Positions 1-23,160 of a DNA stretch of 32,000 bases are shown here, in pieces. The notes beneath the pieces were generated by a model. That model did no database searches, was not told where the DNA came from, and saw only the letters and a program-made list of their open reading frames with translations. Made by a program: the position numbers and the translations under genes. Source of the stretch: Candidatus Saccharimonas aalborgensis (GTDB lineage Bacteria; Patescibacteriota; Saccharimonadia; Saccharimonadales; Saccharimonadaceae); contig NC_021219.1 in assembly GCF_000392435.1 (NCBI RefSeq), forward strand, positions 600,001-632,000. Reading direction: 5' to 3'. Within the stretch, counting starts at the first letter, position 1. Every line of letters starts with the position of its first letter.

Positions 1-1
1 C

Positions 2-61
2 ACCACTATCGCTGACGGAAACTACTCAGATGTTGTCACCTATACGGCAACAACCAACTAG
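2..61 (+). CDS. 3' end of an ORF entering from the left edge; probable secreted beta-sandwich surface protein tail (WxL-like or fimbrial-like C-terminal strand)
   Basis: Frame 2 is open from the window edge to TAG 59-61 (TTIADGNYSDVVTYTATTN*). The alternating beta-strand pattern resembles the last strand of the LamG protein at 1878..3263 (YSNIVTVTGTITP*). Too short to classify. Confidence 0.3.
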   Translation, partial: TTIADGNYSDVVTYTATTN

Positions 62-124
62 TATATTTGAGTGATCGCAATAATAAACCGCTCCGGCTTC
101 TGGGGCGGTTTTCGTACCAGAGAG

Positions 125-153
125 TTGTCCGCTTGTGCTTATCGAGGTATACT
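125..153 (+). promoter_or_regulatory. sigma70-type promoter, leaderless-type geometry
   Basis: TTGTCC (125-130), 17-nt spacer, TATACT (148-153). ATG 161 lies 7 nt after the -10 box and there is no SD. Confidence 0.45.
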
Positions 154-160
154 AGCTAAC

Positions 161-1066
161 ATGAGAATTACGGTATTAGCACGATGCGCACTTGTCGTGG
201 CAGGAACATTTTTGGTAGCGAGTGCACCCCAGGCAGTCCATGCGGCGGATCAGGTAGAGAGTATCACCCTGTCTCCAACCAGTAAGAAGTATACGTTTGA
301 TCCCGGATCAACAAAGGAAGATTCGTTTACTATCCTCAACGATGGTGAAGTGGCATACGACTTCTTAGTCTACGCAGAGCCATACTCACTTGATCCCGTA
401 ACAAGCCAACCTATCTATCAGGGGAGTAAGGCAGCAAACGCCGATGCCAATACGTGGGTGTCCTTCGCGCAGACTAGGTGGCACATTGATCCACATCAGT
501 CCGTACGGGTGCCGTATACAATTCGCGTCAAAGACACCGCTTCGCCCGGTGGACACTACGGGGTGATATTTGCAGAGACGCAGCCGCAATCGTCCGATAC
601 TCAGGGTGTGTCGCTTGGACGAAAGAAGCGCGTAGGGATGATCATCTATAGTACGGTTACAGGTGATCTAAAACCGGCGGGTGCAGTTAAGCAGATTCAG
701 ATCGACGGGTATCAGTCTCAGACGCCGCTTGAAGCATCGGTCCATATCGAGAACACAGGTAATACGGATTTTTTCCCCACCGTTAGCTACCGAGTGGAAG
801 ATGTCTTCGGCAATACAAAATACCAAACGACAAGCTCGGACCATATCGTGCTGCCCGGTATCACTCGGACGATTCCTATGAGTTGGGATCAGGCATCGTG
901 GTTGGGGTTCTATAAAGTCACGGTCAGTACAACGGTGTTGGGCAATACCACAACCCAGTCTTCGTACGTATTTGTCGCACCGCAGTGGTTTATTCTCCTT
1001 GTGGTAGTCTTGATAGCAACGGGTGTCGTTTATGCGATACGTAGTCACCAGACACGCCGTCGTTAG
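161..1066 (+). CDS. DUF916/DUF3324-like (CscA-type) cell-surface protein; signal peptide plus C-terminal TM anchor
   Basis: From ORF 71..1066; the preferred start is ATG 161 (MRITVLARCALVVAGTFLVASAPQAVHA, a signal peptide). There are two beta-rich halves (YTFDPGSTKEDSFTILNDGEVAYDFLVYA; PGGHYGVIFAE; HIENTGNTDFFP). The C-terminus has a TM helix WFILLVVVLIATGVVYAI followed by a basic tail RSHQTRRR. The family call rests on architecture and motif pattern only. Confidence 0.55.
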   Translation: MRITVLARCALVVAGTFLVASAPQAVHAADQVESITLSPTSKKYTFDPGSTKEDSFTILNDGEVAYDFLVYAEPYSLDPVTSQPIYQGSKAANADANTWVSFAQTRWHIDPHQSVRVPYTIRVKDTASPGGHYGVIFAETQPQSSDTQGVSLGRKKRVGMIIYSTVTGDLKPAGAVKQIQIDGYQSQTPLEASVHIENTGNTDFFPTVSYRVEDVFGNTKYQTTSSDHIVLPGITRTIPMSWDQASWLGFYKVTVSTTVLGNTTTQSSYVFVAPQWFILLVVVLIATGVVYAIRSHQTRRR

Positions 1067-1850
1067 GCGCGTTGCCGTTGCTGCAGTGGTCACCATGACC
1101 CTAGTTTTGGGGGCCGCCCCTAGCTATGCTCTCACGTCAAATAGTGGCACAACCATCAATGTTGGTATTTGTGGTACCTCTGGAAGCACGCAATTGGCTA
1201 TTAGTTCTCCAGTGGCAAATTCGACTGTGTCCTCGGTCCCTGTGACGATACAAGGAGTGGTCAACCGGATATCGCAAATTTCTGTCTACCGTGATGGTCA
1301 GTATGATGGCGTCATACCGCTTAACACTGGTGCAACTACGTTTAGTTACATTGCGACTATGACGGCCGGTAGTCACGTGTTTCGATTTGAGGGTGTCGAT
1401 ATTTGTCAGCAGACAACACCTGTTGCTGAGATAACGATTACCTATGATCAAGCTGTTATTATCACGCACCCATCAACTCCCGGGACAGCATCGAACCCTG
1501 GTACTACGACACCAGTGACTGGGCCGGGTATCACTGAGTTTTTAGAAGGCCTTCCGCCGATAAAAATTATTTCCGATGGGTTCTATAAGCTGCTGGTGTG
1601 GTTGGATTTTGCATCACCGACCTCCTTTAGCTCTGTACCACGGATGGCCCAGCGCTTTACAGGAATGACTGTTGGACTCGCACTACTATTTTTGGCGCGC
1701 CCGCTCCTCGATGGTTATCGCTATGTTCGTTACGTAAAACTTGGTTGGCGCGCCCGTCCATTGCCGCTAGTCCTCCGTAGCCATCCCCTGGTTCTCCTGC
1801 GTATCTCCGGACTTATCATTATCACTATCGTCATTCTATTTCTCGCATAA
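1023..1850 (+). CDS. secreted Ig-like-domain protein with two C-terminal TM helices
   Basis: GTG 1023 or ATG 1032 is the start, overlapping the upstream stop. Arg-rich n-region plus hydrophobic core and SYA|LT cleavage-like site. Bacterial Ig-like pattern (LAISSPVANSTVSSVPVTIQGVV..ISVYRDGQY..GSHVFRFEGVD). Pro/Thr linker. Hydrophobic C-terminus (MTVGLALLFLARPLL; LLRISGLIIITIVILFLA). Confidence 0.55.
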   Translation: MSFMRYVVTRHAVVRRVAVAAVVTMTLVLGAAPSYALTSNSGTTINVGICGTSGSTQLAISSPVANSTVSSVPVTIQGVVNRISQISVYRDGQYDGVIPLNTGATTFSYIATMTAGSHVFRFEGVDICQQTTPVAEITITYDQAVIITHPSTPGTASNPGTTTPVTGPGITEFLEGLPPIKIISDGFYKLLVWLDFASPTSFSSVPRMAQRFTGMTVGLALLFLARPLLDGYRYVRYVKLGWRARPLPLVLRSHPLVLLRISGLIIITIVILFLA

Positions 1851-1877
1851 GTTTGTCTCTGATATACTGAGAAAAGC

Positions 1878-3263
1878 ATGAGGGTATCTGTGAGGAACGT
1901 AGGTGTGCTGCTACTTGCCATTATGATAGGCGGTAGTTTTGTTAGCACAGTGAGAGCTGATCGATATAGCTCGTCTCATTATGTGATTGATGCCAGTGTC
2001 GTCGGCAATAGTTTCGGTGGTTCACAGAGCTCCACAAGTTACAAACTAACGAGTAGCGGCGGTGAGAGTATTGTCGGCAATGGACAGGGTGGCAGTTATA
2101 AGGTAGGAATGGGATACGTGGCGCAGTTAGATAAGAGTTTGACCCTGAGCTTGCAGCCAAGTGGTTTGAAGGCGTATTACCCACTCGAAGAAAATAGCGG
2201 TACGTTCACCAGAGATAGCAGTATAAACACTAGTAATGCCGATCTTCAAACCGGAACAACGTGGACGACGGGAAAGATAGGAAATGCGGTAAACACCAAT
2301 GCTAGCTCGTATGTGCAGGTACCCGATAGTACTAACCTCACGTTTAGTCAGAACATGACAGTCTCGCTCTGGGCAAATCAGGCATCAGCATCAACGGACA
2401 AGGCACTAATTGCTCATTGGAATCAAGCAGTGAGTAGTTCATGGGCGCTGCAGACCGGAACAAGTGCAAGTGTTCTGCGCGTTTTTATCGCGAACAGCCA
2501 GGGCGATACGGGCGGAAACTGTGTCGATACAGACGGAGCCTGGTCGGCTGGTTCATGGCATCATGTTGCGCTTGTCTATGATGGTACGCAAAGTACCGCG
2601 CTCGACCGAGCAAAGGTATACATTGATGGTGTTGTCCGCCCAATGTCTGTCTGCTTAGGAACGATACCAAGTTCACTGCAAGACAGCTCATCGTATCTAA
2701 CGATTGGCGCAATGCGCGGCCTTGGTAGGTATTTTAATGGTTCGCTTGATGAGGTGAAAATGTTTAATCGATCGCTCTCGGCCGATGAGGTCAAAGCTGA
2801 GTATGATGCGCAGGCGGCGGGCGTCTCGAGTGGTGTCACTTTGGGCACAATTACACCGGGCGTATCAAACAATGTGCTTGCTGACGCAGTGGTCGAAACT
2901 GATGCTAGCAGCTATACGCTTGCGATTAACCAAAACAATGATCTGACGAGTGGTTCCTATACAATCCCTGCTATTTCCAGTGGTACGATTGCTTCACCGG
3001 TTGCCTGGAACGAGGGGACAACTAAGGGTCTCGGATTTAGTCTTACGGCGACGAATGCTACTGCTATACCGGGATCATGGGGCAGTGGTGCAAATTATGC
3101 AGCGTTTCCCGGTACCGCCACCACTTTTTATACACGTACCGGCATGCCGACCGCAAAAGATTATGTTACTCTCAAAATTCGAGCAGATGTATCGACGACG
3201 CAGGTGAGTACAATCACGCCGTATAGCAATATCGTGACAGTGACAGGTACAATCACTCCATGA
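1878..3263 (+). CDS. LamG / concanavalin-A-like lectin domain surface protein
   Basis: Signal peptide VGVLLLAIMIGGSFVSTVRA. N-terminal triple S-x-x-Y motif (SSSHYVI, STSYKLT, GGSYKVG). Laminin_G_3 hallmarks: NLTFSQNMTVSLWAN, WHHVALVYDG..AKVYIDGV, YFNGSLDEVKMFNRSLSADEVKAEY. A C-terminal ~150-aa beta-rich domain ends YSNIVTVTGTITP*. The extended -10 TGaTATACT (1860-1868) sits 9 nt before the ATG. Confidence 0.75.
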   Translation: MRVSVRNVGVLLLAIMIGGSFVSTVRADRYSSSHYVIDASVVGNSFGGSQSSTSYKLTSSGGESIVGNGQGGSYKVGMGYVAQLDKSLTLSLQPSGLKAYYPLEENSGTFTRDSSINTSNADLQTGTTWTTGKIGNAVNTNASSYVQVPDSTNLTFSQNMTVSLWANQASASTDKALIAHWNQAVSSSWALQTGTSASVLRVFIANSQGDTGGNCVDTDGAWSAGSWHHVALVYDGTQSTALDRAKVYIDGVVRPMSVCLGTIPSSLQDSSSYLTIGAMRGLGRYFNGSLDEVKMFNRSLSADEVKAEYDAQAAGVSSGVTLGTITPGVSNNVLADAVVETDASSYTLAINQNNDLTSGSYTIPAISSGTIASPVAWNEGTTKGLGFSLTATNATAIPGSWGSGANYAAFPGTATTFYTRTGMPTAKDYVTLKIRADVSTTQVSTITPYSNIVTVTGTITP

Positions 3264-4144
3264 AATGTCGATTAGTTTTGGCGAGCGTCGTCGGTGTGTT
3301 GATCGGAGTCAGTGGGGGTACTCATTCGGTGCAGGCTGTATCGCTTAAGGTCACGCCGCTTGAGTATCGAACAACACTCCGCACGGGCGAGAAGAAAAAA
3401 GGATTTGTCGATATCGCCAACCCCGATACGGTCGCAGTAACGGTCACATTCACTGTCCAGGCATTTCGGCAAACTGATAATAATGGATCATTGCAGTTTT
3501 ATGACGACCCGCATATCGCAAAAGGCATTCAGCTTGACCTTGATAGTGTTAGGTTGGGACCTCGAGAAGTAATCCATCTGGCATTTTTGCTGGATGGATC
3601 AGTATTGCCAGCGGGTGACACTTATGCAGCGATCTTTGCGGCATCGACACCGTCATCGAACGGAATGGCGCAGGCAGCGCGAGTTGGGACGTTGCTTTCA
3701 ATTCAAAACGGCACACCCGCAGGTCACGAGGCAAAGGTTTCAGCACTTGCTGCCTCCTTCTTCCAGGTTGGCTCGGAACTTACTGCCACTATCGATGTTA
3801 TGAATCAAGCCGATCCGGCAAAGTATACTGGGTATTATCCAAAGATAGTCGTTGGCTCTGTTCCTTACGGACAAAAAACAGTCGAGGGTCCGCTCGTTTT
3901 TGCTGGCAGAACTCGCACGATTGATTATCGCCAGCCAGGGAACTATTTTGGATTTTTGTTGATTGAAGCCTCGGCTGAAGGCGGTAGTAAGTCACAGGTG
4001 GTGTTTGCGATAACTGGCTACTGGCGTTGGCTCATGCCGATTATCGCTGTTGCATTGATTGTGATAGCGCTCTATGTATATAACCAACGAAAAAAACACC
4101 GGTATCGTACTCACAAAAAAGTGACCAAAATCCCTGTTAAATAG
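3260..4144 (+). CDS. second DUF916/DUF3324-like (CscA-type) membrane-anchored surface protein
   Basis: ATGA start/stop overlap with the LamG gene (3260-3263). Signal peptide (LVLASVVGVLIGVSGGTHSVQA). Same layout as 161..1066: VSLKVTPLEYRTTLRTGEKKKGFVDIANPDTVAVTVTFTV, PAGDTYAAIFAAS, a second beta domain, a TM helix WLMPIIAVALIVIALYVY and a Lys/Arg tail. Confidence 0.5.
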   Translation: MKCRLVLASVVGVLIGVSGGTHSVQAVSLKVTPLEYRTTLRTGEKKKGFVDIANPDTVAVTVTFTVQAFRQTDNNGSLQFYDDPHIAKGIQLDLDSVRLGPREVIHLAFLLDGSVLPAGDTYAAIFAASTPSSNGMAQAARVGTLLSIQNGTPAGHEAKVSALAASFFQVGSELTATIDVMNQADPAKYTGYYPKIVVGSVPYGQKTVEGPLVFAGRTRTIDYRQPGNYFGFLLIEASAEGGSKSQVVFAITGYWRWLMPIIAVALIVIALYVYNQRKKHRYRTHKKVTKIPVK

Positions 4145-4173
4145 TTGTCATAAGCAGTATACTATACTATAGC
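4145..4173 (+). promoter_or_regulatory. candidate promoter of the first tail-fibre-like gene
   Basis: TTGTCA (4145-4150), 17-nt spacer, TATAGC (4168-4173). GGAGA SD at 4184-4188 lies 6 nt before TTG 4195. Confidence 0.35.
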
Positions 4174-4194
4174 CGTATTAAACGGAGATAGTAA

Positions 4195-4761
4195 TTGAGG
4201 TTCACTAAAAGACAAATTCAAGCGGTGTTATTCTTCGCAATACCAGTAATCATGGCATTCCTGGTCAATTTTGCGTTCCCGGCCTCTGTTCACGCCCTCA
4301 CCACCATCCCCTACAAGCTAAACTTCCAAGGCCGCCTGACCGATGCTTCTGGTAACCCTATGGCTGCTGGTACCTACAACATGAAATTCCGTATCTATGA
4401 TGCCAGTAGTGGGGGAACCCTAAAGTGGAGTGAGCAACGTGCCAATAGCGCTAGTACTGGTGTTACTGTCACCACTGGCGGTCTGTTCAGTGTCCAGCTC
4501 GGTGATGTATCGAGTCTGCCTGCTAATATCTTTAGTACCACCGACACTGCTACCCTGTACTTTGAGATAGAGCTCCCAACCCCCGCTACAGCTACCTGTA
4601 CTGGTGCATCTTGTGAATCCTACACTGAAGGACCTATGACCCCCAGAAACAAACTAGCCTCCAGCGCCTACAGCTTCAACTCCGACCTACTGGATGGGTT
4701 GGATTCGAGTGCTTTTGCGCAGGTAGGGGCAACACCAGCTTTACCGGTACACTTGGCGTAA
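4195..4761 (+). CDS. 5' fragment of a frameshifted tail-fibre-like surface protein gene (signal peptide plus shared N-terminal module)
   Basis: TTG start with a GGAGA SD. Signal peptide AVLFFAIPVIMAFLVNFAFPASVHA. Residues [14 protein letters not shown]...SSAFAQVGA are encoded by the 444-bp repeat. The ORF ends 29 nt after the repeat (TPALPVHLA*), while homology to the paralog continues in the -1 frame. Confidence 0.6.
   Translation: MRFTKRQIQAVLFFAIPVIMAFLVNFAFPASVHALTTIPYKLNFQGRLTDASGNPMAAGTYNMKFRIYDASSGGTLKWSEQRANSASTGVTVTTGGLFSVQLGDVSSLPANIFSTTDTATLYFEIELPTPATATCTGASCESYTEGPMTPRNKLASSAYSFNSDLLDGLDSSAFAQVGATPALPVHLA
4289..4732 (+). repeat. 444-bp direct repeat, copy 1 (identical to 6893..7336)
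   Basis: Compared base by base by eye: all 444 positions are identical, offset 2604 bp. The flanks on both sides are unrelated at nucleotide level. Confidence 0.95.
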
Positions 4762-4808
4762 ATCTGTCGAGTAGCACGGCATTTACTGTTGGCGCAAGTG
4801 GTACCAAT

Positions 4809-6146
4809 GTGCTGACGGCCGACACCACGAATGCGCTGGTCAAGATAGGTACTGCAGATAGCACTAGTCAGGTGCTGGTGCTCGACACCAACACTGCAGA
4901 TCCTGGAGCGGGCGCGACGTCGACCAACGGTGCGATGTACTACAATTCCACATCGGGCAAGTTTCGCTGCTACCAGGGTGCATGGACGGATTGTATTACT
5001 GCTGCTGGCGGCGCGACGCTGCAGACGGCCTACACCGCCTCGACTGGTGGCACAACACCGGAGATCAAGGCTGATGCCACACGGGCCGGGTTCGATATTC
5101 AAGATGCCGATACCACCATTGCTGGTACGTTATTTGCCGTGCGGGGGAGTAATGCCGGTGGGCTCGGTACAGCGCTCTTTGATGTTAGCAGCACTGGTGC
5201 AGCGCAATTTACTGTGCCATCGGCGTCGGCAACGGCTTTCACGCTACAAACTGCCGCCAGCACAAAGCTATTTGTCGCTGATAGTACAAGCGCGCGGATA
5301 TACATAGGCGGGTCAGCGGTGACAACCAATCCAATTACCCTTGTACTCAGCAACGCCTCGTCGGCATCCGACCCGACTGGGGTTGCTGGTTCGATGTACT
5401 ATAGCACCGCGAAAGATGCCTTTCGCTGCTATGAAGCTGGCATATGGCGTAATTGTATCGGCAATACTGACTCTACATCGGGTTATCGCTATGCCAATGA
5501 CCTGCTGGGGTCATTTACGACAACGGGTGATGTTTTCGCCAGCTCGACTGGCACCGGTGCTGCCACAGCGACGAGTAACGCAACCATTGCCACAAACCGC
5601 CCTGGTACATTTCGTTCGACGACTGGTACGACGACGACCGGACGAGCGGCATTCGGCTCGACAACAAATGCATTAGCATTAGGTGGGGGGCTCACACTGT
5701 ACGAAACAGCCGTCAACGTCACGACACTTTCTGGTGCGACGAATCGCTATAGCATGGTAGTCGGCTTCTATGATTCGACCACGGCTAACCAAGTCGATGC
5801 TGTCAGTTTTGTCTATGATGAAGGTGGTGTATCGACTGGTTCGACGGCGAGCGCAAACTGGCAAGTCGTCACGTCTTCGAACAGCACTCGGACGTGGACC
5901 ACCACCACCACGGCAGTCGGTGCAGGTACATGGGTTAAACTTGGCATCATTGTCAATGCAGCTGGTACCAGTGTCGGGTTCTATATCAATGGCACACTAG
6001 TGGCGACTCATACGGCCAATATCCCGACCGGTACTGCTCGAGCGCTTGGTTTTGGTTCACAAATACTCAAATCGGTCGGTACGACGGCTCGGACAGTCGA
6101 CATCGACTACTTGCAAGCCGAGATGGAATTCACGACGCCGCGGTAA
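4809..6146 (+). CDS. 3' fragment of the same frameshifted tail-fibre-like gene; ConA-like jelly-roll C-terminal domain
   Basis: This frame is open from 4629. From 4731 it reads NTSFTGTLGVNLSSSTAFTVGASGTNVLTADTTNALVKIGT, colinear with the paralog. Two G(A/S)MYY..FRCY..W..C motifs are present. The C-terminus (NWQVVTSSN..WVKLGIIVNAAGTSVGFYINGTLVATHTANIP..VDIDYL) looks like a LamG/ConA-type jelly roll. Confidence 0.6.
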   Translation: MLTADTTNALVKIGTADSTSQVLVLDTNTADPGAGATSTNGAMYYNSTSGKFRCYQGAWTDCITAAGGATLQTAYTASTGGTTPEIKADATRAGFDIQDADTTIAGTLFAVRGSNAGGLGTALFDVSSTGAAQFTVPSASATAFTLQTAASTKLFVADSTSARIYIGGSAVTTNPITLVLSNASSASDPTGVAGSMYYSTAKDAFRCYEAGIWRNCIGNTDSTSGYRYANDLLGSFTTTGDVFASSTGTGAATATSNATIATNRPGTFRSTTGTTTTGRAAFGSTTNALALGGGLTLYETAVNVTTLSGATNRYSMVVGFYDSTTANQVDAVSFVYDEGGVSTGSTASANWQVVTSSNSTRTWTTTTTAVGAGTWVKLGIIVNAAGTSVGFYINGTLVATHTANIPTGTARALGFGSQILKSVGTTARTVDIDYLQAEMEFTTPR

Positions 6147-6157
6147 TCGGGTATACT
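6129..6157 (+). promoter_or_regulatory. sigma70-type promoter, leaderless-type geometry
   Basis: TTCACG (6129-6134), 17-nt spacer, TATACT (6152-6157). ATG 6164 lies 6 nt downstream and there is no SD. Confidence 0.4.
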
Positions 6158-6163
6158 AATAAT

Positions 6164-6652
6164 ATGAAAGTAGACATGACATCAATGGGTGGTAGGGCGC
6201 GCAACGATGAAGATCGTGCAATTTCTACGTTACGCAGGCGGCCTGTTCTACGACGAGACATGCTTAGGATGACACGATTCTCGGTATTTGGTGCGGTGAT
6301 CTTTATTAGTGTCCTAATTTTTGCTGTATCGTTATATGTCCTCAATGGTCGTGATACATTGATTGATCCCTCGAAATATCAAGTGGTCTACCTTATAAAC
6401 GGACAGGCATATTTTGGTAAGTTACAGAATGTTCACGGTGAGTACTTGGTTATCAATAGCCCGTATACCGCACAAACAGCTCCGCAGCAGGCCAGTGACA
6501 AAGAGGCGGAGCAAGCTACGACACTTTTGCGTGTACGTGATCAGGTGTACGGCCCAGAAGACGCCATGTCCATAAAGTCGAGTCAGGTTGTGTTTTGGCA
6601 AAATCTTCGCGATGATAGCAAAGTGACACAGGCGCTCAAGAGTAAACAGTAG
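6164..6652 (+). CDS. small single-pass membrane protein, function unknown
   Basis: 162-aa ORF with a basic N-terminus, one TM helix (FSVFGAVIFISVLIFAVSLYVL) and an extracytoplasmic domain YQVVYLINGQAYFGKLQNVHGEYLVINSPY...VVFWQNL. It sits between the two repeat copies. Confidence 0.6.
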   Translation: MKVDMTSMGGRARNDEDRAISTLRRRPVLRRDMLRMTRFSVFGAVIFISVLIFAVSLYVLNGRDTLIDPSKYQVVYLINGQAYFGKLQNVHGEYLVINSPYTAQTAPQQASDKEAEQATTLLRVRDQVYGPEDAMSIKSSQVVFWQNLRDDSKVTQALKSKQ

Positions 6653-6704
6653 TACGTTCATACCATCTTTGGTAGTTATACCCAGTATTTGAATACTGCA
6701 TCGT

Positions 6705-6733
6705 TTGACGTTTCAAACCACAAGCACTATAGT
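6705..6733 (+). promoter_or_regulatory. candidate promoter of the LVIVD adhesin gene
   Basis: TTGACG (6705-6710), 17-nt spacer, TATAGT (6728-6733). A 15-codon ORF begins 5 nt after the -10 box (ATG 6739). Confidence 0.45.
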
Positions 6734-6825
6734 ATACCATGAGCCATACTCTCATTTCCTTTGAGTGGTGTGGAGAAAATAAATAATAAACGGGAAGAAA
6801 AATAATAAACACGACTAAAAAATCG

Positions 6826-9579
6826 TTGTTGTTATTGTTCGCGCTACCATTTATCTCCGGATTTGTAGCGCTGTTTTGCGTATCTAATAATATTCACGCC
6901 CTCACCACCATCCCCTACAAGCTAAACTTCCAAGGCCGCCTGACCGATGCTTCTGGTAACCCTATGGCTGCTGGTACCTACAACATGAAATTCCGTATCT
7001 ATGATGCCAGTAGTGGGGGAACCCTAAAGTGGAGTGAGCAACGTGCCAATAGCGCTAGTACTGGTGTTACTGTCACCACTGGCGGTCTGTTCAGTGTCCA
7101 GCTCGGTGATGTATCGAGTCTGCCTGCTAATATCTTTAGTACCACCGACACTGCTACCCTGTACTTTGAGATAGAGCTCCCAACCCCCGCTACAGCTACC
7201 TGTACTGGTGCATCTTGTGAATCCTACACTGAAGGACCTATGACCCCCAGAAACAAACTAGCCTCCAGCGCCTACAGCTTCAACTCCGACCTACTGGATG
7301 GGTTGGATTCGAGTGCTTTTGCGCAGGTAGGGGCAAGTAACACCTGGACGTCTACCAACTTAATCAAGGTTGATAGCGCAACAGCTTTTCAGGTTCAAAA
7401 TGCAGCTGGCTCAACGACGGTTATGAGGGTTGACACGACTGCAAATCGGCTCATGGTTGGCACGCTTGGCACAAGTACTGGCCAACTCTATGTCAGCGGC
7501 AGACTACCAACTGCTTCACTTGGTTCAGTGGCCGTGGGTACGGCGACCCGATCAGTCGCTGTGCAAGGCCGTTATGCTTATACTACAAACTCGACGTCTG
7601 GTGCCCTTAAAGTCTTTGATGTAAGTAACCCAGCAAGCCCAGTCAGTGTTGGCACCATCTCGAGTACTAACGCCTATTTCGTGGCGGTGCAAGGTCGCTA
7701 CGCCTACGTGACAAGTGCAGTTGGTAACACATTAAGCATATATGACGTTAGTAACCCAGCAAGCCCAACGAGTATGGGGTCAGCATCAGTCGCTGGCGCA
7801 TATTCGGTGTATGTGCAAGGTCGCTACGCCTACGTCGGTAGTAACAGCGGCACATTTACCATTGTCGATGTCGGTAATCCGTCCGCACCAATCGTTGCAG
7901 GTTCGCTTAGTATCGGTGCAGGCGCATTGCAGTCAGTCTATATTCAGGGTGTGTATGCCTATATTGTTGATAATACTAACTCAACACTAAACATTGTGAA
8001 TATTAGTAACCCCGCCAGCCTGAGCGTAATAGGCTCACTAGTAATCGGGACGAATATAAAAGCAGTTTCGGTTCAGGGTCGCTATGCCTATATTATTGAC
8101 AATGGCGGTAGCGCACTCAATGTGATTGACGTGAAGAATCCTGCTTCGCCAACCAGCGTCGGCTCAGTTGCGACTGGGTCTTCACCCCAGTCTCTCAGTG
8201 TGCAAGGCCGCTACGTATACGTCACAAACGGAACCGGTAACACTCTCGGTATTTATGATGTATCGACGCCGACCGCTCCTGCTAGTGTTGGAACTGTTGG
8301 TACCGGTAACTTGCCAATCGCCGTGAGCGTTGTTGGTCGCTACGCCTACGTCATTAATTACACGTCCAATACACTCACAACCTATGACGTCGGTGGTGCC
8401 TACGTTCAGCAACTCGAGGCCGGAGGGGCAGAGCTCGGTACGTTGTCTGTCAATGGCAACACGCAGTTGGTGGGTGACGCAATCATTAATGGCGGGCTGA
8501 GTGTTGGGTCGGCAGCGCAGATAAGCGGCGCACTGACAGTTGGGCAAAGTGTGCAGTTTAATGGTGACTTCGGTGTAGGTGGGCGAGTGAATTTGCAGAA
8601 TGTGATCAATTCGACGACGGCCGTGCAGATCAACAATGCCGCTGGAGTAAATTTATTTACGGCTGACACGACTAACTTTACGGTGCAGATAGGACTACTC
8701 GGAACCGATAGTAATGCCGCACTCTTCGTACTCGATTCATACAATCAAGCAACTGACCCAACTGGTTTCAACGGGGCCATGTACTACAACACTAGCCTTA
8801 ACAAGTTTCGCTGCTACCAGAATGGAGCATGGGCAGACTGTATTGGGAGTGGCTCGGGCGCTAGCCTCAGCGCCAATAATACGTGGACAGGAACCAATCT
8901 TTTCAAGACGACTAGCGCAAGTGCTCTCCAAATTCAAAATGCGAGCAGTGCCACTCTTCTGACGGCCGATACAAGCGCAAATCAAGTGGTGATTGGCAGT
9001 ACGAGCGACGGTATCACACTTGGCGCGAGCGGACTCCTCTATGTAGGTACTGGTCGACCGAGCGCTCAAATTACACTTTCGGCAGAGTACCCAGGAGCAA
9101 CGTTCACTGGCGACGGAACTAGCAATAACGGCTCACTTAGCAGCGATTTTTGTTCTGGCTCCTCACGACTCAATATCAACACGGGCGTCTGTGCCGCCAC
9201 AGAGACACATAATTACTATGCTTGGACAACCACCCAAGCGAGTGCACAGGACTACGATGTGTATGCTCGCTACCAGCTACCCAGCGATTACGACACGGGC
9301 AGCCTGACAAATCTTAAGATCTGGGGCTGGGGGACATCAACCACGACCGATCAAGTGACAGTGGCAATGTATGTCGACAGTAGTGGTACGGCGTGCAGTA
9401 CCAGCGGCAATGCAGTGTCAAGTAATGCAACTTGGGTACAAGTGACAGTTGCATCGCCGCTCGGTGCATGTACGCCGGTTGCGGGTGATATGGTGACATT
9501 TAAGGTGCGTGTGGTTGCTGGACAGAATAACTATGCACGTGCGGGAGAAATAAATTTTAGTTATAAGAGGAAATCCTAG
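6826..9579 (+). CDS. large tail-fibre-like surface adhesin with a 7-blade LVIVD beta-propeller
   Basis: Signal peptide [24 protein letters not shown]. The next 148 aa are identical to the 4195 ORF. Seven ~42-aa LVIVD-type repeats follow, then NTWTG-type fibre repeats and a [23 protein letters not shown] motif. The C-terminal beta domain is Cys-rich. The start is uncertain: TTG 6826 is the first classical start, and the frame is open from 6790. Confidence 0.8.
6893..7336 (+). repeat. 444-bp direct repeat, copy 2 (identical to 4289..4732)
   Basis: See copy 1. Identity starts in the last signal-peptide codons (HA|LTT) and ends at GGGGCAA (..AQVGA). Confidence 0.95.
7555..8397 (+). repeat. seven tandem ~126-bp coding repeats (LVIVD blades)
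   Basis: The consensus V.VQGRYAY(V/I)....(N/G).[13 protein letters not shown] recurs 7 times. The 23-nt string GTGCAAGGTCGCTACGCCTACGT occurs at 7687-7709 and again at 7813-7835, exactly 126 bp apart. AGTAACCCAGCAAGCCCA also recurs with the same 126-bp spacing, at 7623-7640 and 7749-7766. Confidence 0.85.
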
Positions 9580-9582
9580 ATT

Positions 9583-11982
9583 ATGGTGGCACGTGGATTA
9601 AAATTTGGAGTCCTATTAATGACTGTTACACTGATTTTTTCACTAGTGGTCTCTCGATTTGCGGGTGCGGCTATAAGTTATCGGGCAGCTGGTCTTGGCA
9701 ATAATGCGGGCGGTGCTACCACACTAAATGTCAGCAAACCTAGCGGTGCGCAAGATGGTGATATTTTGATAGCAGTTATCTCGGTTCGTGGTGGAACAAG
9801 TACAACAATCACACCTCCGGCAGGTTGGACGCTAATTAATAGTAATGATAGTACAACGATTTTAAAAAGCTCAGTTTTTTGGAAACAGTCTTCAGCATCT
9901 GACGATAGTATATATACGTTTAGTTTTAATTCGTCACAGAAAGCATCAGGGGTCATATCGGGTTATAGTGGTGTGGATACGGTGTCGTCACCAGTAAATG
10001 CACAAAACAGTCAGGTGAATGCCTCATCAACCTCTATGACGGCTCCAGATGTTACGACTACAGTTACTAATACGATGGTTATTGCCGCTTACAGTACGGC
10101 AACGGGCACCACTATGACTGCCGGAAGTAGTATGTCGTTGCGTGGCCAAGACGCGAGTACTGGCGGATCTGCGGCGACGCGTACAACATCTGGCTTGCAA
10201 GATATCATCCAGCCCACCACCGGCTCTACGGGTACAAAAACCATGACCACTGGCACGGCAGCAGTAAATATTGGTCATACGATTGCGCTTAAGCCAGCGG
10301 CGAGCGTGTCTCAGGTGGGCTATAGGTTTTTTGACAACACAGATAGTACTTCTGTTACAACTGCCATAGCTGCGAAGGATACTGCGGCCTCAGTGAGCTC
10401 GGGAGTACCATTTCGCTTAAGGATAAACTTGGGCGTATCATCGTCCGAAGGCTCGGCACTAGCGGGTCTGACGTACAAGTTACAATACGCGCTGCGGGGC
10501 GCCGATAATTCCTGTGATACATCATTTACCAGTGAGAGTTATGCTGACGTCTTGACGTCTGCAACGCCAGTAAGGTTCTACAACAATGTGACACCATCTA
10601 ACGGTGCAGCCTATTTGACTAATGCCAGCGACCCGACACGCTCTGGTGTCACGGCGGTTGGTCAAACCTATAACGAAGATAATCCCATATCAGTCACAAC
10701 ATCAACTCCAGCTGGTCAAGACATGTTGTGGGATATAGCGCTGATGACTAGTGGCGTTAGCGCAGGTGAGCACTATTGTTTACGTGTTGTGAAAGAGAGT
10801 ACGGGCGCTACTTTGAACGGAGGCTATAGTGTTATACCAGAGGTAGCCATAGTCGCCGCAACGGTCACACAAGCTAACTATCGTTGGTATAGTAATGCTG
10901 ACTCTACAACGCCGGGGAGCGTTCTTGCTGCACAAGACACTGCTGCTTATAGTGTTGCGGCAGGTACACCTATTCGGCTTCGTCAGCGTTTGGCGGTAGA
11001 TACAGCCAGCCTGGGGATAAACCAAGATTTTAAGTTACAGTACGCTGAACGTTCAGGTATCTGTGATACCTCGTTTAGCGGGGAGATGTTTTATGATGTG
11101 AATAATCCCGGAGGAGAAAACCAGTCTGTCACAGCGAATTCTACCATAGTTTCTGAGAATACATCGTACGGGACGTTTAGCTGGACATCACCACAAAATG
11201 CTGCCGGAGAAGACAGCACATATGCGCAGTTAGCAGGGGCAACTACTGGTTCGTACTATTTACAGTCTTCGCAGCATGGATTCAATATTCGGCCTGACGC
11301 TACTATTTCTGGTATTGAGCTGAAAGTTAGGGTGTACTATGAAGGCTATGACGCGTCGGATTCGAATGTTAGATTGGCAAAAGCTGGTATTCCGGTGGGG
11401 ACAAATCACGCGACAAGTGCTTCATTTAGCTACATGAGCCCAGCTTATTATACATATGGCTCACCGACTGATTTATGGGGCACAACTTGGACTCCCAGTG
11501 AGATAAATGATACAAATTTTGGCGGTATGTTTTCTGGGTGGACGAGTGATTCTGTTCCGGTAGGAACGCTGTATGTCGATAACATGCAAATAGTTGTCTA
11601 CTACACCGTTCCCGACATAATTAAGTTTTATGATAACGTAACACCCACAAATGCGGCTTCGATATCTTCTATCGGTAGTGATCCTACAAACGGTGTAAGA
11701 GGTACTATCTATCAAAGCTATCAAGAGGTAAATCTATTTTCAGCTAGTACGGTTGTAGCTGCCGGTAGCGACGGCTTATGGGATTTCGCGCTGGCAACTG
11801 ATTCGTCAGTAGCCGGTAAAACTTATTGCCTCAGAATGGTCAAAAGTGATGGAGGGTTGCTCGATACCTACACGAATATTCCCGAAATCAGTTTTGCATC
11901 AGCAGGCGGGCCAACGCTAGACCAAAAAACGCGCGGTGGCCAAGCTGTGGTCGACGGGGTGAAATCACCATATAGCTTCTAA
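9583..11982 (+). CDS. 799-aa secreted repeat protein, unknown function; duplicated ~180-aa module with a nested insert domain
   Basis: ATG 9583 lies 3 nt after the upstream stop, with AGAGGA 11 nt upstream. Signal peptide LKFGVLLMTVTLIFSLVVSRFAGA. N-terminal domain with GDILIAVISVRGG..ITPPAGWTLI. Modules begin VGYRFFDNTDS (10315) and ANYRWYSNADS (10873). Both end (H/T)YCLR(V/M)VK....IPE(V/I). Confidence 0.7.
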   Translation: MVARGLKFGVLLMTVTLIFSLVVSRFAGAAISYRAAGLGNNAGGATTLNVSKPSGAQDGDILIAVISVRGGTSTTITPPAGWTLINSNDSTTILKSSVFWKQSSASDDSIYTFSFNSSQKASGVISGYSGVDTVSSPVNAQNSQVNASSTSMTAPDVTTTVTNTMVIAAYSTATGTTMTAGSSMSLRGQDASTGGSAATRTTSGLQDIIQPTTGSTGTKTMTTGTAAVNIGHTIALKPAASVSQVGYRFFDNTDSTSVTTAIAAKDTAASVSSGVPFRLRINLGVSSSEGSALAGLTYKLQYALRGADNSCDTSFTSESYADVLTSATPVRFYNNVTPSNGAAYLTNASDPTRSGVTAVGQTYNEDNPISVTTSTPAGQDMLWDIALMTSGVSAGEHYCLRVVKESTGATLNGGYSVIPEVAIVAATVTQANYRWYSNADSTTPGSVLAAQDTAAYSVAAGTPIRLRQRLAVDTASLGINQDFKLQYAERSGICDTSFSGEMFYDVNNPGGENQSVTANSTIVSENTSYGTFSWTSPQNAAGEDSTYAQLAGATTGSYYLQSSQHGFNIRPDATISGIELKVRVYYEGYDASDSNVRLAKAGIPVGTNHATSASFSYMSPAYYTYGSPTDLWGTTWTPSEINDTNFGGMFSGWTSDSVPVGTLYVDNMQIVVYYTVPDIIKFYDNVTPTNAASISSIGSDPTNGVRGTIYQSYQEVNLFSASTVVAAGSDGLWDFALATDSSVAGKTYCLRMVKSDGGLLDTYTNIPEISFASAGGPTLDQKTRGGQAVVDGVKSPYSF

Positions 11983-22103: not shown

Positions 22104-23160
22104 CCTAAATTCACCCCCCAATCAGGACACTCCCTCTAGAATTAATCCTTTCTCTTTTGCAACTTGTAATGAACTTTTGTAGCCGAGGATCTTCCTCGGC
22201 TTGTTGTTGATGCGCGTGAGCGCCATGTCAACATCCGTTTGTGTCACTGTAGCAAAGTCGGTGCCCTTCGGGAAGTAGCGACGCAGCATCTTGTTGGTGT
22301 TCTCGACACTGCCTTTTTGCCAAGAGGAATAGGGGTCAGTAAAGAAGACGGGCGCGCCCGTCTTCTTAGTGACGAGTGCGTGGCGCCTGTTCTCGATGCC
22401 GTTATCAGTCGTCATACTGCGAACCCCCAGCCCACTCGCGAGTCGCGAGATGGTGTGTGCGTACGGCTCTGGCTTCAGGTTAGGTACGAGCTTCGCTCGT
22501 ACCAGTCGTGAAGACCGTTCGGTAAGGACAGCGAGTGCAGAGACGCTCCCTGGGTGCTTGCTGCTCACGACGCTGTCGTATTCACAGTGACCGGTCTCGG
22601 CTCGGTCTAGAGCGACCAGCGGTCGCTCTGTGACGGAAGTGCGGTCGGGAATCATGACGTGACCCGCCCTGAGTTGTCTGCGTGGTTTCTTGCGGTAACG
22701 CTTCGAGTACAGCAACGGGCAGTACTGTTGTCCCCAGGCACTGCGCAACCATTCATAGATGGCCGTCTTGCTGGCATAGATACCAAGCGCTGAGTTGGCT
22801 CTGAGATAGCCGGCTATCTCGTCTGGATTCCAGTGCTCAGAGAGTTTCAGGACGATGAACGAGCGAAGCTCGTCATTGTCTTGAATCTTCTTGCCTTGGT
22901 AGCGAGCATACTTACGCCGTACATAGGCTTTGTGTTTGGCGTGGGTAGCGACGTATCTCCCATCCTTGAGGCTATTGCGTTGCAGCTCGGTCGCAATGGT
23001 ATTGGGACTGCGCCCCAATGCACGGGCGATGGCCCGTGCAGAATAGCCTTTGGTATGGAGGATGTCTATCTCGCTCCGCTCGGCATCCGTTACCTTTGAT
23101 GCTTTCTTCATGGTGTGTATTGTCTAGCATCGGGTGTCCTGATTCAAAACGGAATGGAGG
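22104..23160 (-). mobile_element. IS30-family insertion sequence, 1057 bp, apparently intact
   Basis: Left end CCTAAATTCACCCCCCAATCAGGACAC (22104-22130). The reverse complement of 23134-23160 is CCTCCATTCCGTTTTGAATCAGGACAC. 18 of 27 positions are identical, including an 11-bp perfect core. TAT flanks both sides (22101-22103 and 23161-23163), a 3-bp target duplication. It encloses one DDE transposase ORF. Confidence 0.75.
22122..23111 (-). CDS. IS30-family DDE transposase
   Basis: 329 aa. N-terminal HTH (GYSARAIARALGRSPNTIATELQRN). DDE region (SMTTDNGIENRRH; FFTDPYSSWQKGSVENTNKMLRRYFPKGTDF). Confidence 0.93.
   Translation of the reverse strand: MKKASKVTDAERSEIDILHTKGYSARAIARALGRSPNTIATELQRNSLKDGRYVATHAKHKAYVRRKYARYQGKKIQDNDELRSFIVLKLSEHWNPDEIAGYLRANSALGIYASKTAIYEWLRSAWGQQYCPLLYSKRYRKKPRRQLRAGHVMIPDRTSVTERPLVALDRAETGHCEYDSVVSSKHPGSVSALAVLTERSSRLVRAKLVPNLKPEPYAHTISRLASGLGVRSMTTDNGIENRRHALVTKKTGAPVFFTDPYSSWQKGSVENTNKMLRRYFPKGTDFATVTQTDVDMALTRINNKPRKILGYKSSLQVAKEKGLILEGVS

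Follow-up and report, generated by a model that had tools for sequence, protein, structure and literature searches.

A probable Pam-type pilus operon with a LamG-bearing subunit, and an adjoining fibre module, in Candidatus Saccharimonas aalborgensis

Saccharimonadia live attached to host bacteria and, to our knowledge, little is understood of the way in which a host is chosen and held. The closest described machinery is the Pam pilus of Candidatus Mycosynbacter amalyticus, which belongs to the candidate phyla radiation (CPR), for which cryo-electron microscopy showed filaments of PamA and PamB built by donor-strand exchange (Troman et al., bioRxiv 10.64898/2026.03.03.709456). According to that preprint, PamC and PamD are chaperones of the PapD/FimC kind which, in contrast to those of Gram-negative bacteria, retain a C-terminal transmembrane (TM) helix, and these anchored two-domain proteins are read as assembly chaperones, not as static scaffolds; PamR is RbmA-like, bears a strand at its N-terminus and a TM helix at its C-terminus, and is proposed as terminator and anchor; PamT is the proposed tip subunit; and a tail-fibre-like gene is a conserved, central neighbour of the pam genes. 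NCBIfam models from the preprint cover PamR (NF058578), PamT (NF058579) and the pilin C-terminal domain (NF058581, Pam_pilin_C). In Firmicutes, a hairpin of the anchored protein WxLIP completes the sandwich of its WxL partner in an AlphaFold2 (AF2) model (PMC10599100), and the mosaic adhesive trimer (MAT) fibres of Bdellovibrio pair swappable tips with an N-terminal domain that is invariant, lies near the cell and is believed to bind an element of its surface (PMC10769870). Here we describe a locus of Candidatus Saccharimonas aalborgensis at the left end of a 32,000-nt stretch of contig NC_021219.1 (positions 600,001 to 632,000, forward strand; hereafter the window). Its positions 1..4144, together with a pilin gene cut by the window edge, probably form a compact, usher-less, donor-strand pilus operon of the Pam type; the genes, numbered g1 to g8, are listed in Table 1.

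A first-pass annotation of the window had described the region as a divergent Csc-like scaffold displaying lectin and fibre modules and had known of no description of this combination. The attachment role it put forward is still the most plausible one. A description does exist, as the gene set matches the CPR Pam pilus operon of the preprint through PamR, PamT and Pam_pilin_C. We favor the Pam-type operon because the pilin, g2 and g3 each match Pam models, g1 and g4 fit the description of PamC and PamD, and the gene order is conserved.

A scan of one genome per species returned 43 related loci, named here by contig (L001 and so on) where needed. The order g1-(g2)-g3-g4-fibre-g6-fpg-holA, usually with a pilin gene upstream, recurs in most of them, in line with the conservation of gene order on which the first-pass interpretation depended, and every complete locus carries exactly two chaperone-type genes. 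The best related locus is L001, from a metagenome-assembled genome (MAG) of Ca. Saccharimonas aalborgensis. All 43 are labelled Saccharibacteria, Saccharimonadia, Patescibacteria or uncultured bacterium with the exception of L008 (DATMTU010000030.1), a Saccharimonadia-type operon in a MAG labelled Dongiaceae (Alphaproteobacteria), which is probably a mis-binned contig. A more distant operon, L059:2557-9366 (JGI 3300028459, 39% GC), was reached via the remote chaperone homologue P0446; it codes for a PamT-type protein of 241 aa that has no LamG, a two-domain pilin of 338 aa, a pair of TM-anchored chaperones (one matching Pfam DUF916 at E 1.5e-5) and a MAT-like fibre, and is a useful reference form of the system.

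The open reading frame (ORF) cut by the left edge of the window had been read as the end of a beta domain. Its codons at 2..61 match the end of the pilin gene L001:6178-6786, which finishes in GNYSDIVTYTATTN before the stop; the cut ORF is therefore the end of a pilin gene, whose product has ~200 aa in relatives, and not of a gene for a large beta-domain protein. The two C-terminal tails that had been pointed out, YSDVVTYTATTN at 2..61 and YSNIVTVTGTITP in g3, are real. In 35 of the 43 loci the gene immediately upstream of the first chaperone gene encodes a secreted pilin homologue of ~200 aa, and some loci have two such copies. Among 40 members of this family, 30 match the NCBIfam model CPR_Pam_pilin_C (best E 4.7e-8, all below the 55-bit cut-off), nine match SCPU, the Pfam family of archaic chaperone-usher pilins, and none matches Pfam WxL. 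The Pam_pilin_C match begins near residue 67 and is preceded by a conserved mature N-terminus (consensus T.NTTVNA...S.IS) at the place of the donated linker strand of PamA/B. The pilins of this locus type are single-domain proteins of ~200 aa (~170 when mature), unlike PamA/B/E, which have two domains (an N-terminal nine-strand sandwich and, after a linker, the C-terminal domain). Searching PDB sequences with the pilin profile returned chance matches to antibodies and CopC only, the set apparently being without PamA/PamB entries, and no profile likeness to FimA-type pilins was found (hhalign at most 3%).

The g3 product carries the LamG fold recognized at first pass (Pfam Laminin_G_3, 92 bits), and its residues 10-95 match NCBIfam PamT ("CPR-type pilus protein PamT") at E 2.4e-7, as do 17 of 41 relatives, which places it among PamT subunits. 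Its C-terminal 144 residues are homologous to the small pilins (hhalign 95.5%, E 1.5e-8), with cross-matches by plain hidden Markov models (HMMs) in several loci. BLASTP against the LamG-less PamT-type protein L059:2557-3282 aligned both ends of g3, residues 10-95 to 2-85 (E 1e-12) and residues 320-444 to 88-226 (E 1e-10), so that the 225 LamG residues correspond to a two-residue loop and constitute a clean insertion. The g3 product is therefore of the PamT type, its pilin domain being interrupted behind the first strand by an inserted lectin domain. In the AF2 model of g3 (predicted local distance difference test, pLDDT, 83) the LamG jelly-roll and the C-terminal beta domain are confident, and a highly conserved Ser/Gly/Tyr-rich segment at residues 36-80 is disordered. 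Foldseek placed lectin-like receptor-binding domains of toxins and a carbohydrate-binding domain at the top, a search dominated by LamG and uninformative on the pilin-like domain. The model of TafC, from haloarchaeal Tat-fimbriae, matched 38 of 41 g3 relatives via LamG, and TafC is a functional precedent for a LamG-bearing tip subunit in donor-strand fimbriae.

As for g2, it is the membrane protein with an Ig-like domain that the first reading had seen, with membrane segments at its C-terminus. It matches NCBIfam CPR_pilus_PamR ("pilus system RbmA-like protein PamR") at E 4.6e-4, far below the equivalog cut-off, and Pfam Glucodextran_B at 27.7 bits; 8 of 21 members of its family match PamR (best 1.3e-5). 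The alignment of its relatives shows a strand conserved right after the signal peptide (e.g. TTINVGIC), resembling the pilin strand, and a conserved TM segment. The PamR architecture, an N-terminal strand, an Ig/FnIII-like domain and a C-terminal TM anchor, is thus found in g2. About one third of the loci (L003, L006, L007, L009, L011, L013, L014, L021, L025, L029, L033 and L038) lack a PamR-like gene detectable, by HMM included, between g1 and the LamG gene; several of these carry two or three pilin-like genes instead.

The anchored proteins g1 and g4 are paralogues (24% identity, E 1e-5 by BLASTP; 100% probability in a family-against-family hhalign comparison). An AF2 model of g4 built on 41 sequences (pLDDT 92.9) displays two beta-sandwich domains behind a signal peptide, with a TM helix spanning residues 255-285, and so combines the PapD-like two-domain fold with the C-terminal TM helix that characterizes the Pam chaperones; its paralogue g1 has the identical layout. 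Both would fit the PamC/PamD type as judged from the described architecture. In the PDB, Foldseek found chaperone-usher chaperones (CfaA, CsuC, FimC, PapD) and WxLIP equally strong matches of the g4 model (E ~1e-8 to 1e-7); the WxLIP entries are 9i1y and 9i25 of E. faecium (E ~6e-8), the latter bound to a WxL protein. In sequence, E. coli FimC, SfmC and YadV gave hhalign probabilities of at most 1.4% against g1 and g4 (0.1-0.7% for g1). A PDB sequence search with the chaperone profile gave no match, in the same set that apparently lacks PamA/PamB entries.

The kinship of g1 and g4 with DUF916/DUF3324 proteins (WxLIP/CscA), proposed at first pass, was borne out as a remote one by Foldseek, by the alignment of profiles with each other and through intermediate sequences. 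When scanned directly with Pfam and NCBIfam, no window protein matched DUF916, DUF3324 or WxL at E<=1. A profile of six WxLIP sequences gave hhalign probabilities of 86-92% at full length but of 16% and 4.6% once the signal peptide and TM segment were removed. Because of this weak result without the hydrophobic ends, the WxLIP profile was enlarged to 77 sequences, from annotated WxL clusters on Firmicute plasmids and 75 more WxLIP, nearly all with PF06030 and PF11797, before the link was accepted. With the hydrophobic ends removed, the g1 family then matched at 90.9% (E 1.2e-6) over 207 columns spanning both domains and the g4 family at 53% (E 1.4e-4); the observed scores of 50 and 36, respectively, compare with 10-23 for column-shuffled controls, and E. 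coli FimC/SfmC/YadV reached probabilities of 0.1-0.4% in this comparison. An exhaustive HMMER search with the g4 profile reached 886 cluster representatives at E<=1e-3, and PF06030 was matched by 6 of 10 scanned remote relatives of the g4 family (best E 1.5e-5, 25.5 bits vs a gathering score of 27.3) and by 2 of 41 close relatives. Of the 226 detectable homologues of g4, those with a named source belong to Saccharimonas, Saccharibacteria or Patescibacteria; the one exception is a MAG labelled Dongiaceae.

Given this kinship, g1 and g4 could also be WxLIP-type scaffolds that hold small beta-domain and LamG proteins non-covalently in a static Csc/WxL-like surface complex, without any polymerisation. 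Such a complex would suit proteins that are nearer to WxLIP than to chaperone-usher chaperones in sequence and that match WxLIP structures, and in the Firmicute system a WxLIP hairpin completes the WxL sandwich in the AF2 model (PMC10599100). The motifs T[DN]..G[WY].L and Y..[TD].[LV]T[WY] are collinear, by eye and as a lead only, between WxL proteins and the C-termini of the pilin and g3. On the other hand, a WxL domain is undetectable: Pfam found none in the window products or the 40 pilins, and hhalign scores against 18 WxL domains were 16-17, the null level, in agreement with the first-pass observation that a clean WxL motif is absent. LPXTG proteins are absent as well, as that annotation had stated, no L[PA]x[TSA]G signal with a hydrophobic tail occurring in any frame of the window. 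Furthermore, the subunits match Pam_pilin_C and SCPU, relatives of this operon type form filaments in M. amalyticus, and a strand is conserved ahead of the pilin domain, with a similar one on g2. We consider a static complex rather unlikely. Of the proposed Csc-like scaffold, the DUF916/DUF3324-like nature of the anchors stands; the displayed partners are not WxL proteins, and the fibres carry no domain for the anchors to bind, so that a display of fibre modules on the anchors is unsupported.

Homology of the pilin and of the g3 C-terminal domain with WxL was rejected as unproven, hhalign remaining at null level against 8 and then 18 WxL domains in local, global and low-mact runs. A possible bridge was sought in L058, a contig of a spore-forming Firmicute with Ena appendage genes nearby. 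It encodes a divergent WxLIP with PF06030 only (L058:8001-8927, P0315), flanked by two ~210-aa WxL-like proteins (L058:7127-7759 and L058:8937-9596) that have lost the tryptophan of the second motif; these, too, stayed at null level. Their tails, PYSSTLTLSLISGP and PYSTTLTFSLIAGP, the former close to the g3 tail PYSNIVTVTGTITP, look intermediate between those of WxL proteins and CPR pilins, a resemblance of sequence that may be suggestive and carries no statistical support.

Comparison with L001 uncovered a replacement within the operon. DNA identity is 86-98% over window positions 75-1974, drops to 30-69% at ~2075-3920 and returns to 72-84% after ~3923; the corresponding protein identities are 97% for g1, 94% for g2, 49% for g3 and 59% for g4. 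The low-identity block (~8700-10600 on the L001 side) covers the body of g3 from about residue 65 and the g4 ectodomain to its end. The g3 body and the g4 ectodomain are thus replaced as one ~1.9-kb cassette, and the fact that they travel together suggests that the lectin subunit g3 and g4 may be a cognate pair, with g4 probably the dedicated partner of the tip adhesin. A PamT:PamD pairing was modelled in the supplement of the Pam preprint (bioRxiv 10.64898/2026.03.03.709456) and parallels that of g3 and g4. The pattern is the one expected of a host-specificity determinant.

If the locus is a Pam-type pilus operon, its products, all of which carry signal peptides, would be exported by Sec. The ~170-aa mature pilin would be a single incomplete Ig-like domain behind its conserved N-terminal strand. 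Acting like PapD or WxLIP, g1 and g4 would complete the groove of unassembled subunits with a strand of their own and hold them at the membrane, g1 serving the pilin and g4 the tip adhesin, and the subunits would then polymerise via donor-strand exchange. The fibre would begin at its distal end with g3, whose LamG lectin domain, presumably binding glycans, would face the host surface, and would be closed by g2, the N-terminal strand of which may enter the last pilin as its C-terminal helices tie the fibre to the membrane. The adjacent, syntenic adhesin module at 4195..11982 would add a small membrane protein, a repeat protein and trimeric fibres of the MAT kind, in which the N-terminal module near the cell stays constant and the tips are exchangeable, and both modules would diversify by recombination, as expected for host-recognition gear.

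Several points weigh against this reading. The NCBIfam matches lie far below the curated cut-offs (PamR 19 vs 300 bits, PamT 30 vs 240, and Pam_pilin_C 17, in the pilin of the closest relative, vs 55), and g2 was found in 25 of the 43 loci. The likeness of g1 and g4 to PamC and PamD is one of description and predicted fold. All but 19 codons of the pilin gene lie outside the window, and the pilin is a single-domain protein as opposed to the two-domain, filament-forming PamA and PamB, which leaves its polymerisation inferred. The donor strands and grooves assigned to the pilin, g1, g3 and g4 are predictions, and the conserved disordered stretch near the N-terminus of g3 might be a donor strand in its own right, in which case g3 would be internal to the fibre and not its tip. 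Finally, it is synteny that suggests a functional link between the pilus operon and the fibres.

The adhesin module begins with g5, which together with g7 accounts for the two tail-fibre-like proteins of the first-pass annotation. Both N-termini match the NCBIfam family Bdello_MAT_N weakly (g5: E 4.2e-8, 33 bits; g7: E 2.1e-5, 24 bits; cut-off 60), and the tail-fibre-like label depends on this match, no tail-fibre family of PHROGs being hit by either protein. The seven-blade LVIVD propeller reported for g7 was confirmed, with seven 43-residue blades bearing the QGRYAY motif at residues 247-545 (nt ~7564-8460) and six stretches matched by Pfam LVIVD (E 2.4e-40). The tip of g5 matches Pfam SO2946-like_C (E 1.3e-41, in 4809..6146). 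No S74 protease domain was detected in the fibres, and PDB sequence searches with 4809..6146, g7 and g8 gave no matches.

A 444-nt direct repeat, identical in both copies, codes for the mature N-terminus of both fibre proteins, the tips of which differ. Such a layout is consistent with MAT fibres, in which a trimeric beta-prism shaft bears independent C-terminal tip domains. The identity ends at GGGGCAA, after which g7 goes on with GTAACACC and g5 with CACC, 4 nt short. The frame of 4809..6146 is open upstream to 4629, the sequence ahead of its start codon looks homologous to g7 in our reading, and the g5 orthologues of L043, L015 and L022 are single intact ORFs. In view of the 4-nt loss at 4732/4733, the open frame and the intact orthologues, 4195..4761 and 4809..6146 are one gene, broken at a recombination junction. 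The break is either a real pseudogene or an assembly error at the exact repeat; the junction could reflect gene conversion or tip-swapping with an imprecise join, or an assembly artefact. Programmed frameshifting was considered and rejected, as the site has no slippery heptamer and the orthologues are intact, so that a deletion or an assembly artefact is likelier. At the start of g7, neither ATG, GTG nor TTG occurs upstream of TTG 6826, which gives a signal peptide without a charged n-region; an in-frame ATA at 6805, just after TAA 6802, would give an N-terminus that parallels that of the other fibre (MRFTKRQIQAVLFFAIP), so a rare ATA start is possible from the sequence.

Downstream of the broken fibre gene lies g6, which had no family match in NCBIfam, Pfam or PHROGs; among related loci whose sequence reaches far enough, about two thirds have it behind the fibre gene. 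The 799-aa repeat protein of the first-pass annotation, g8, does contain a repeat: a domain of ~185 aa occurs twice, at 43-46% identity, and its second occurrence is interrupted by ~170 inserted residues, one domain lying inside another. It had no match in Pfam, NCBIfam or PDB; homologues follow the fibre genes in L017, L020, L030, L005 and L022, and it is probably a surface or adhesin protein.

It is conceivable that the whole region encodes one integrated apparatus, in which the pilus or g1/g4 would carry the MAT-like fibres and the 799-aa protein as cargo. A fibre gene follows the second chaperone in most loci, L059 included, and a tail-fibre-like gene is central in the pam neighbourhood (bioRxiv 10.64898/2026.03.03.709456), as such an apparatus would have it. 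However, the fibre and repeat proteins gave no match to HMMs built from g1, g2, g4, the pilin and the C-terminal domain of g3, and each fibre comes with a signal peptide and with a constant N-terminal module of the kind believed to bind the surface in Bdellovibrio. In L021 the fibre genes stand several kb downstream of the operon, past fpg and holA, and in L033 no fibre gene follows g4. This makes a single integrated apparatus quite improbable, and two neighbouring modules, a Pam-type operon and a set of fibres, are the arrangement that we prefer.

That the genes encode unrelated secreted proteins sharing a surface-protein neighbourhood, with no assembly pathway, might be argued from the sub-threshold family matches and the chance-level promoter and terminator scans, but is extremely improbable and was already disfavoured, given that the five-gene order is conserved across the 43 loci down to ~35% identity, that the genes overlap or abut, that four components out of five show a match to a Pam component independently of one another, that g1 and g4 fit the PamC/PamD architecture, and that g3 and g4 are replaced together.

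Regarding the layout of the locus, nine plus-strand ORFs occupy 1-11982: those of g1 to g4 and g6 to g8 (Table 1) and the two parts of g5, 4195..4761 and 4809..6146. The uniform orientation and tight packing noted at first pass are as described, including the overlap 1023/1066, the ATGA at 3260-3263 and the 3-nt gap 9579/9583. So is the N-terminal signal peptide or membrane anchor of each complete product, since a Kyte-Doolittle scan gave a hydrophobic N-terminal segment throughout; the same scan placed C-terminal TM segments at residues 266-297 of g1, 249-267 of g2 and 250-276 of g4. No sortase or usher gene was found in the locus, nor any usher-like ORF or PapD Pfam match (PF00345/PF02753). 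GC content is ~50% across the window, with no compositional island seen, and the rest of the window holds the housekeeping genes fpg, holA, truB and pnp and an IS30 transposase. The latter (22122-23111, minus strand, E 2e-59), ~10 kb downstream of the locus, is one of few sizeable minus-strand ORFs in the downstream part of the window.

Promoter and terminator scans of the locus were at chance level. A hairpin with a T-rich tail at 103-130, between the pilin stop (59-61) and the g1 start (161), overlaps a promoter-like site at 125-153 and could, by analogy with chaperone-usher operons, attenuate read-through after the major pilin gene; hairpins and promoter-like sites are no commoner in the window than in shuffled sequence.

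Table 1. Features of the locus at window positions 1-11982
Feature	Coordinates	Strand	Description
3' end of pilin gene	2..61	+	19 codons and stop of a small major-pilin gene; translation TTIADGNYSDVVTYTATTN
g1, chaperone 1 (candidate)	161..1066	+	Signal peptide, two beta-sandwich domains, C-terminal TM helix, basic tail; WxLIP/DUF916-DUF3324-like, fits PamC/D type
g2, PamR-like putative terminator/anchor	1023..1850	+	Signal peptide, short N-terminal strand, Ig-like domain, Pro-rich linker, C-terminal membrane segments
g3, putative tip adhesin, PamT-type with inserted LamG	1878..3263	+	Laminin_G_3, PamT N-terminus, pilin-like C-terminal domain; signal peptide, Ser/Gly/Tyr repeat (aa 28-85), first pilin-domain strand (aa 86-95)
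g3, LamG domain	~2163-2834	+	aa ~96-319
g3, rest of pilin-like domain	2835-3260	+	aa 320-461
g4, chaperone 2 (candidate)	3260..4144	+	Architecture of g1; AF2 model and Foldseek
g5, MAT-like fibre gene, broken	4195..6146	+	~650 aa; Bdello_MAT_N, SO2946-like_C tip
Fibre repeat, copy 1	4289..4732	+	444-nt direct repeat, 100% identical to copy 2
g6, small protein	6164..6652	+	One N-terminal TM anchor (aa 33-63)
g7, fibre gene	6826..9579	+	MAT-like N-terminal module, seven-blade LVIVD propeller, shaft, C-terminal tip
Fibre repeat, copy 2	6893..7336	+	444-nt direct repeat, 100% identical to copy 1
g8, secreted 799-aa protein	9583..11982	+	Duplicated ~185-aa domain, with ~170 aa inserted in the second copy

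The locus is a candidate for the gear with which this bacterium recognizes and grips its host: a probable five-gene pilus operon with a putative lectin tip, the tip being swapped together with its chaperone between near-identical strains, and fibre genes with a constant base and exchangeable tips. The type of system is already published, with NCBIfam models, and is not categorically new. What is new is the compact variant, with a single-domain pilin and a PamT::LamG subunit, in at least 43 species-representative genomes mostly labelled Saccharibacteria or Saccharimonadia; the cassette behaviour of tip adhesin and chaperone; and the demonstrated kinship of TM-anchored Pam-type chaperone-like proteins with Firmicute WxLIP/CscA. 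For annotation, the genes score below the current NCBIfam Pam cut-offs, and their public names are still "hypothetical" or "LamG domain-containing."

The Pam preprint (bioRxiv 10.64898/2026.03.03.709456) never mentions WxL, and the WxLIP paper (PMC10599100) never mentions chaperones or PapD; the locus thus joins two literatures that do not cite each other. As the anchored proteins are akin to those of both systems, a testable reinterpretation of WxLIP as a chaperone suggests itself. More tentatively, and short of what we would call probable, CPR Pam pili and Firmicute WxL/Csc clusters may be two branches of one ancient usher-less monoderm system, in which an anchored DUF916/DUF3324-type chaperone serves strand-deficient Ig-like subunits; the Saccharimonadia locus would be its minimal form, and the cassette of LamG tip and chaperone an exchangeable determinant of host range. 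If this is true, WxLIP/CscA are assembly chaperones and WxL proteins may form short donor-strand fibres.

Among known systems, the Pam pilus shares with the locus its class (Saccharimonadia), Sec export, two PapD-like two-domain TM proteins, a PamR-like strand-bearing TM protein, a PamT-type subunit, a pilin domain akin to the Pam pilin C-terminal domain, the absence of an usher and an adjoining tail-fibre-like gene. The pilin here, however, consists of one domain and has no counterpart of the nine-strand sandwich at the N-terminus of PamA/B/E, and its genes number one or two in place of three. In addition, PamT bears a LamG insertion of 225 residues, the genes stand in another order, and their neighbours are fpg/holA, not ATP synthase.

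The WxL/Csc clusters of Lactobacillales and Bacillales (in which CscA = WxLIP = DUF916+DUF3324+TM; PMC10599100; PDB 9i1y, 9i25) have an anchored two-domain protein that is homologous by fold, profile-profile comparison and intermediates. Its gene likewise lies beside genes for small secreted beta-domain proteins and for a large protein carrying that domain C-terminally plus a binding module, and a strand of the anchored protein is likewise predicted to complete the partner sandwich. In contrast, our locus, from another phylum, has no recognizable WxL domain (PF13731), W-x-L motifs, small LPXTG protein (CscD) or sortase, and has two anchored paralogues instead of one and a PamR-like protein.

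Chaperone-usher pili (Fim, Pap, CFA/I, Csu) share the chaperone fold (Foldseek E ~1e-8 to 1e-7), the weak SCPU likeness of 9 of the 40 pilins and the principle of a tip adhesin that joins a lectin domain to a pilin domain and has a dedicated chaperone. In our case outer membrane and usher are both absent, the chaperones are TM-tethered and only the fold is common. The haloarchaeal Tat-fimbriae (tafi; TafA/TafE/TafC/TafF; PMC11821415) are also donor-strand fimbriae with a LamG-bearing terminal subunit and a membrane protein proposed as terminator and anchor. They differ in Tat rather than Sec export, in the LamG of TafC being C-terminal to the pilin-like domain and not inserted, and in having no chaperone genes described, and the likeness is limited to the LamG part (PMC11821415).

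For the adhesin module, the closest counterpart is the Bdellovibrio MAT (PMC10769870; NCBIfam NF053851). The N-terminal matches are sub-threshold here, the cell is monoderm and the tips are an LVIVD propeller and SO2946-like_C; yet both have a constant N-terminal module, a fibre and diverse C-terminal tips, with evidence of tip exchange at the module boundary, in organisms that prey on or parasitise bacteria.

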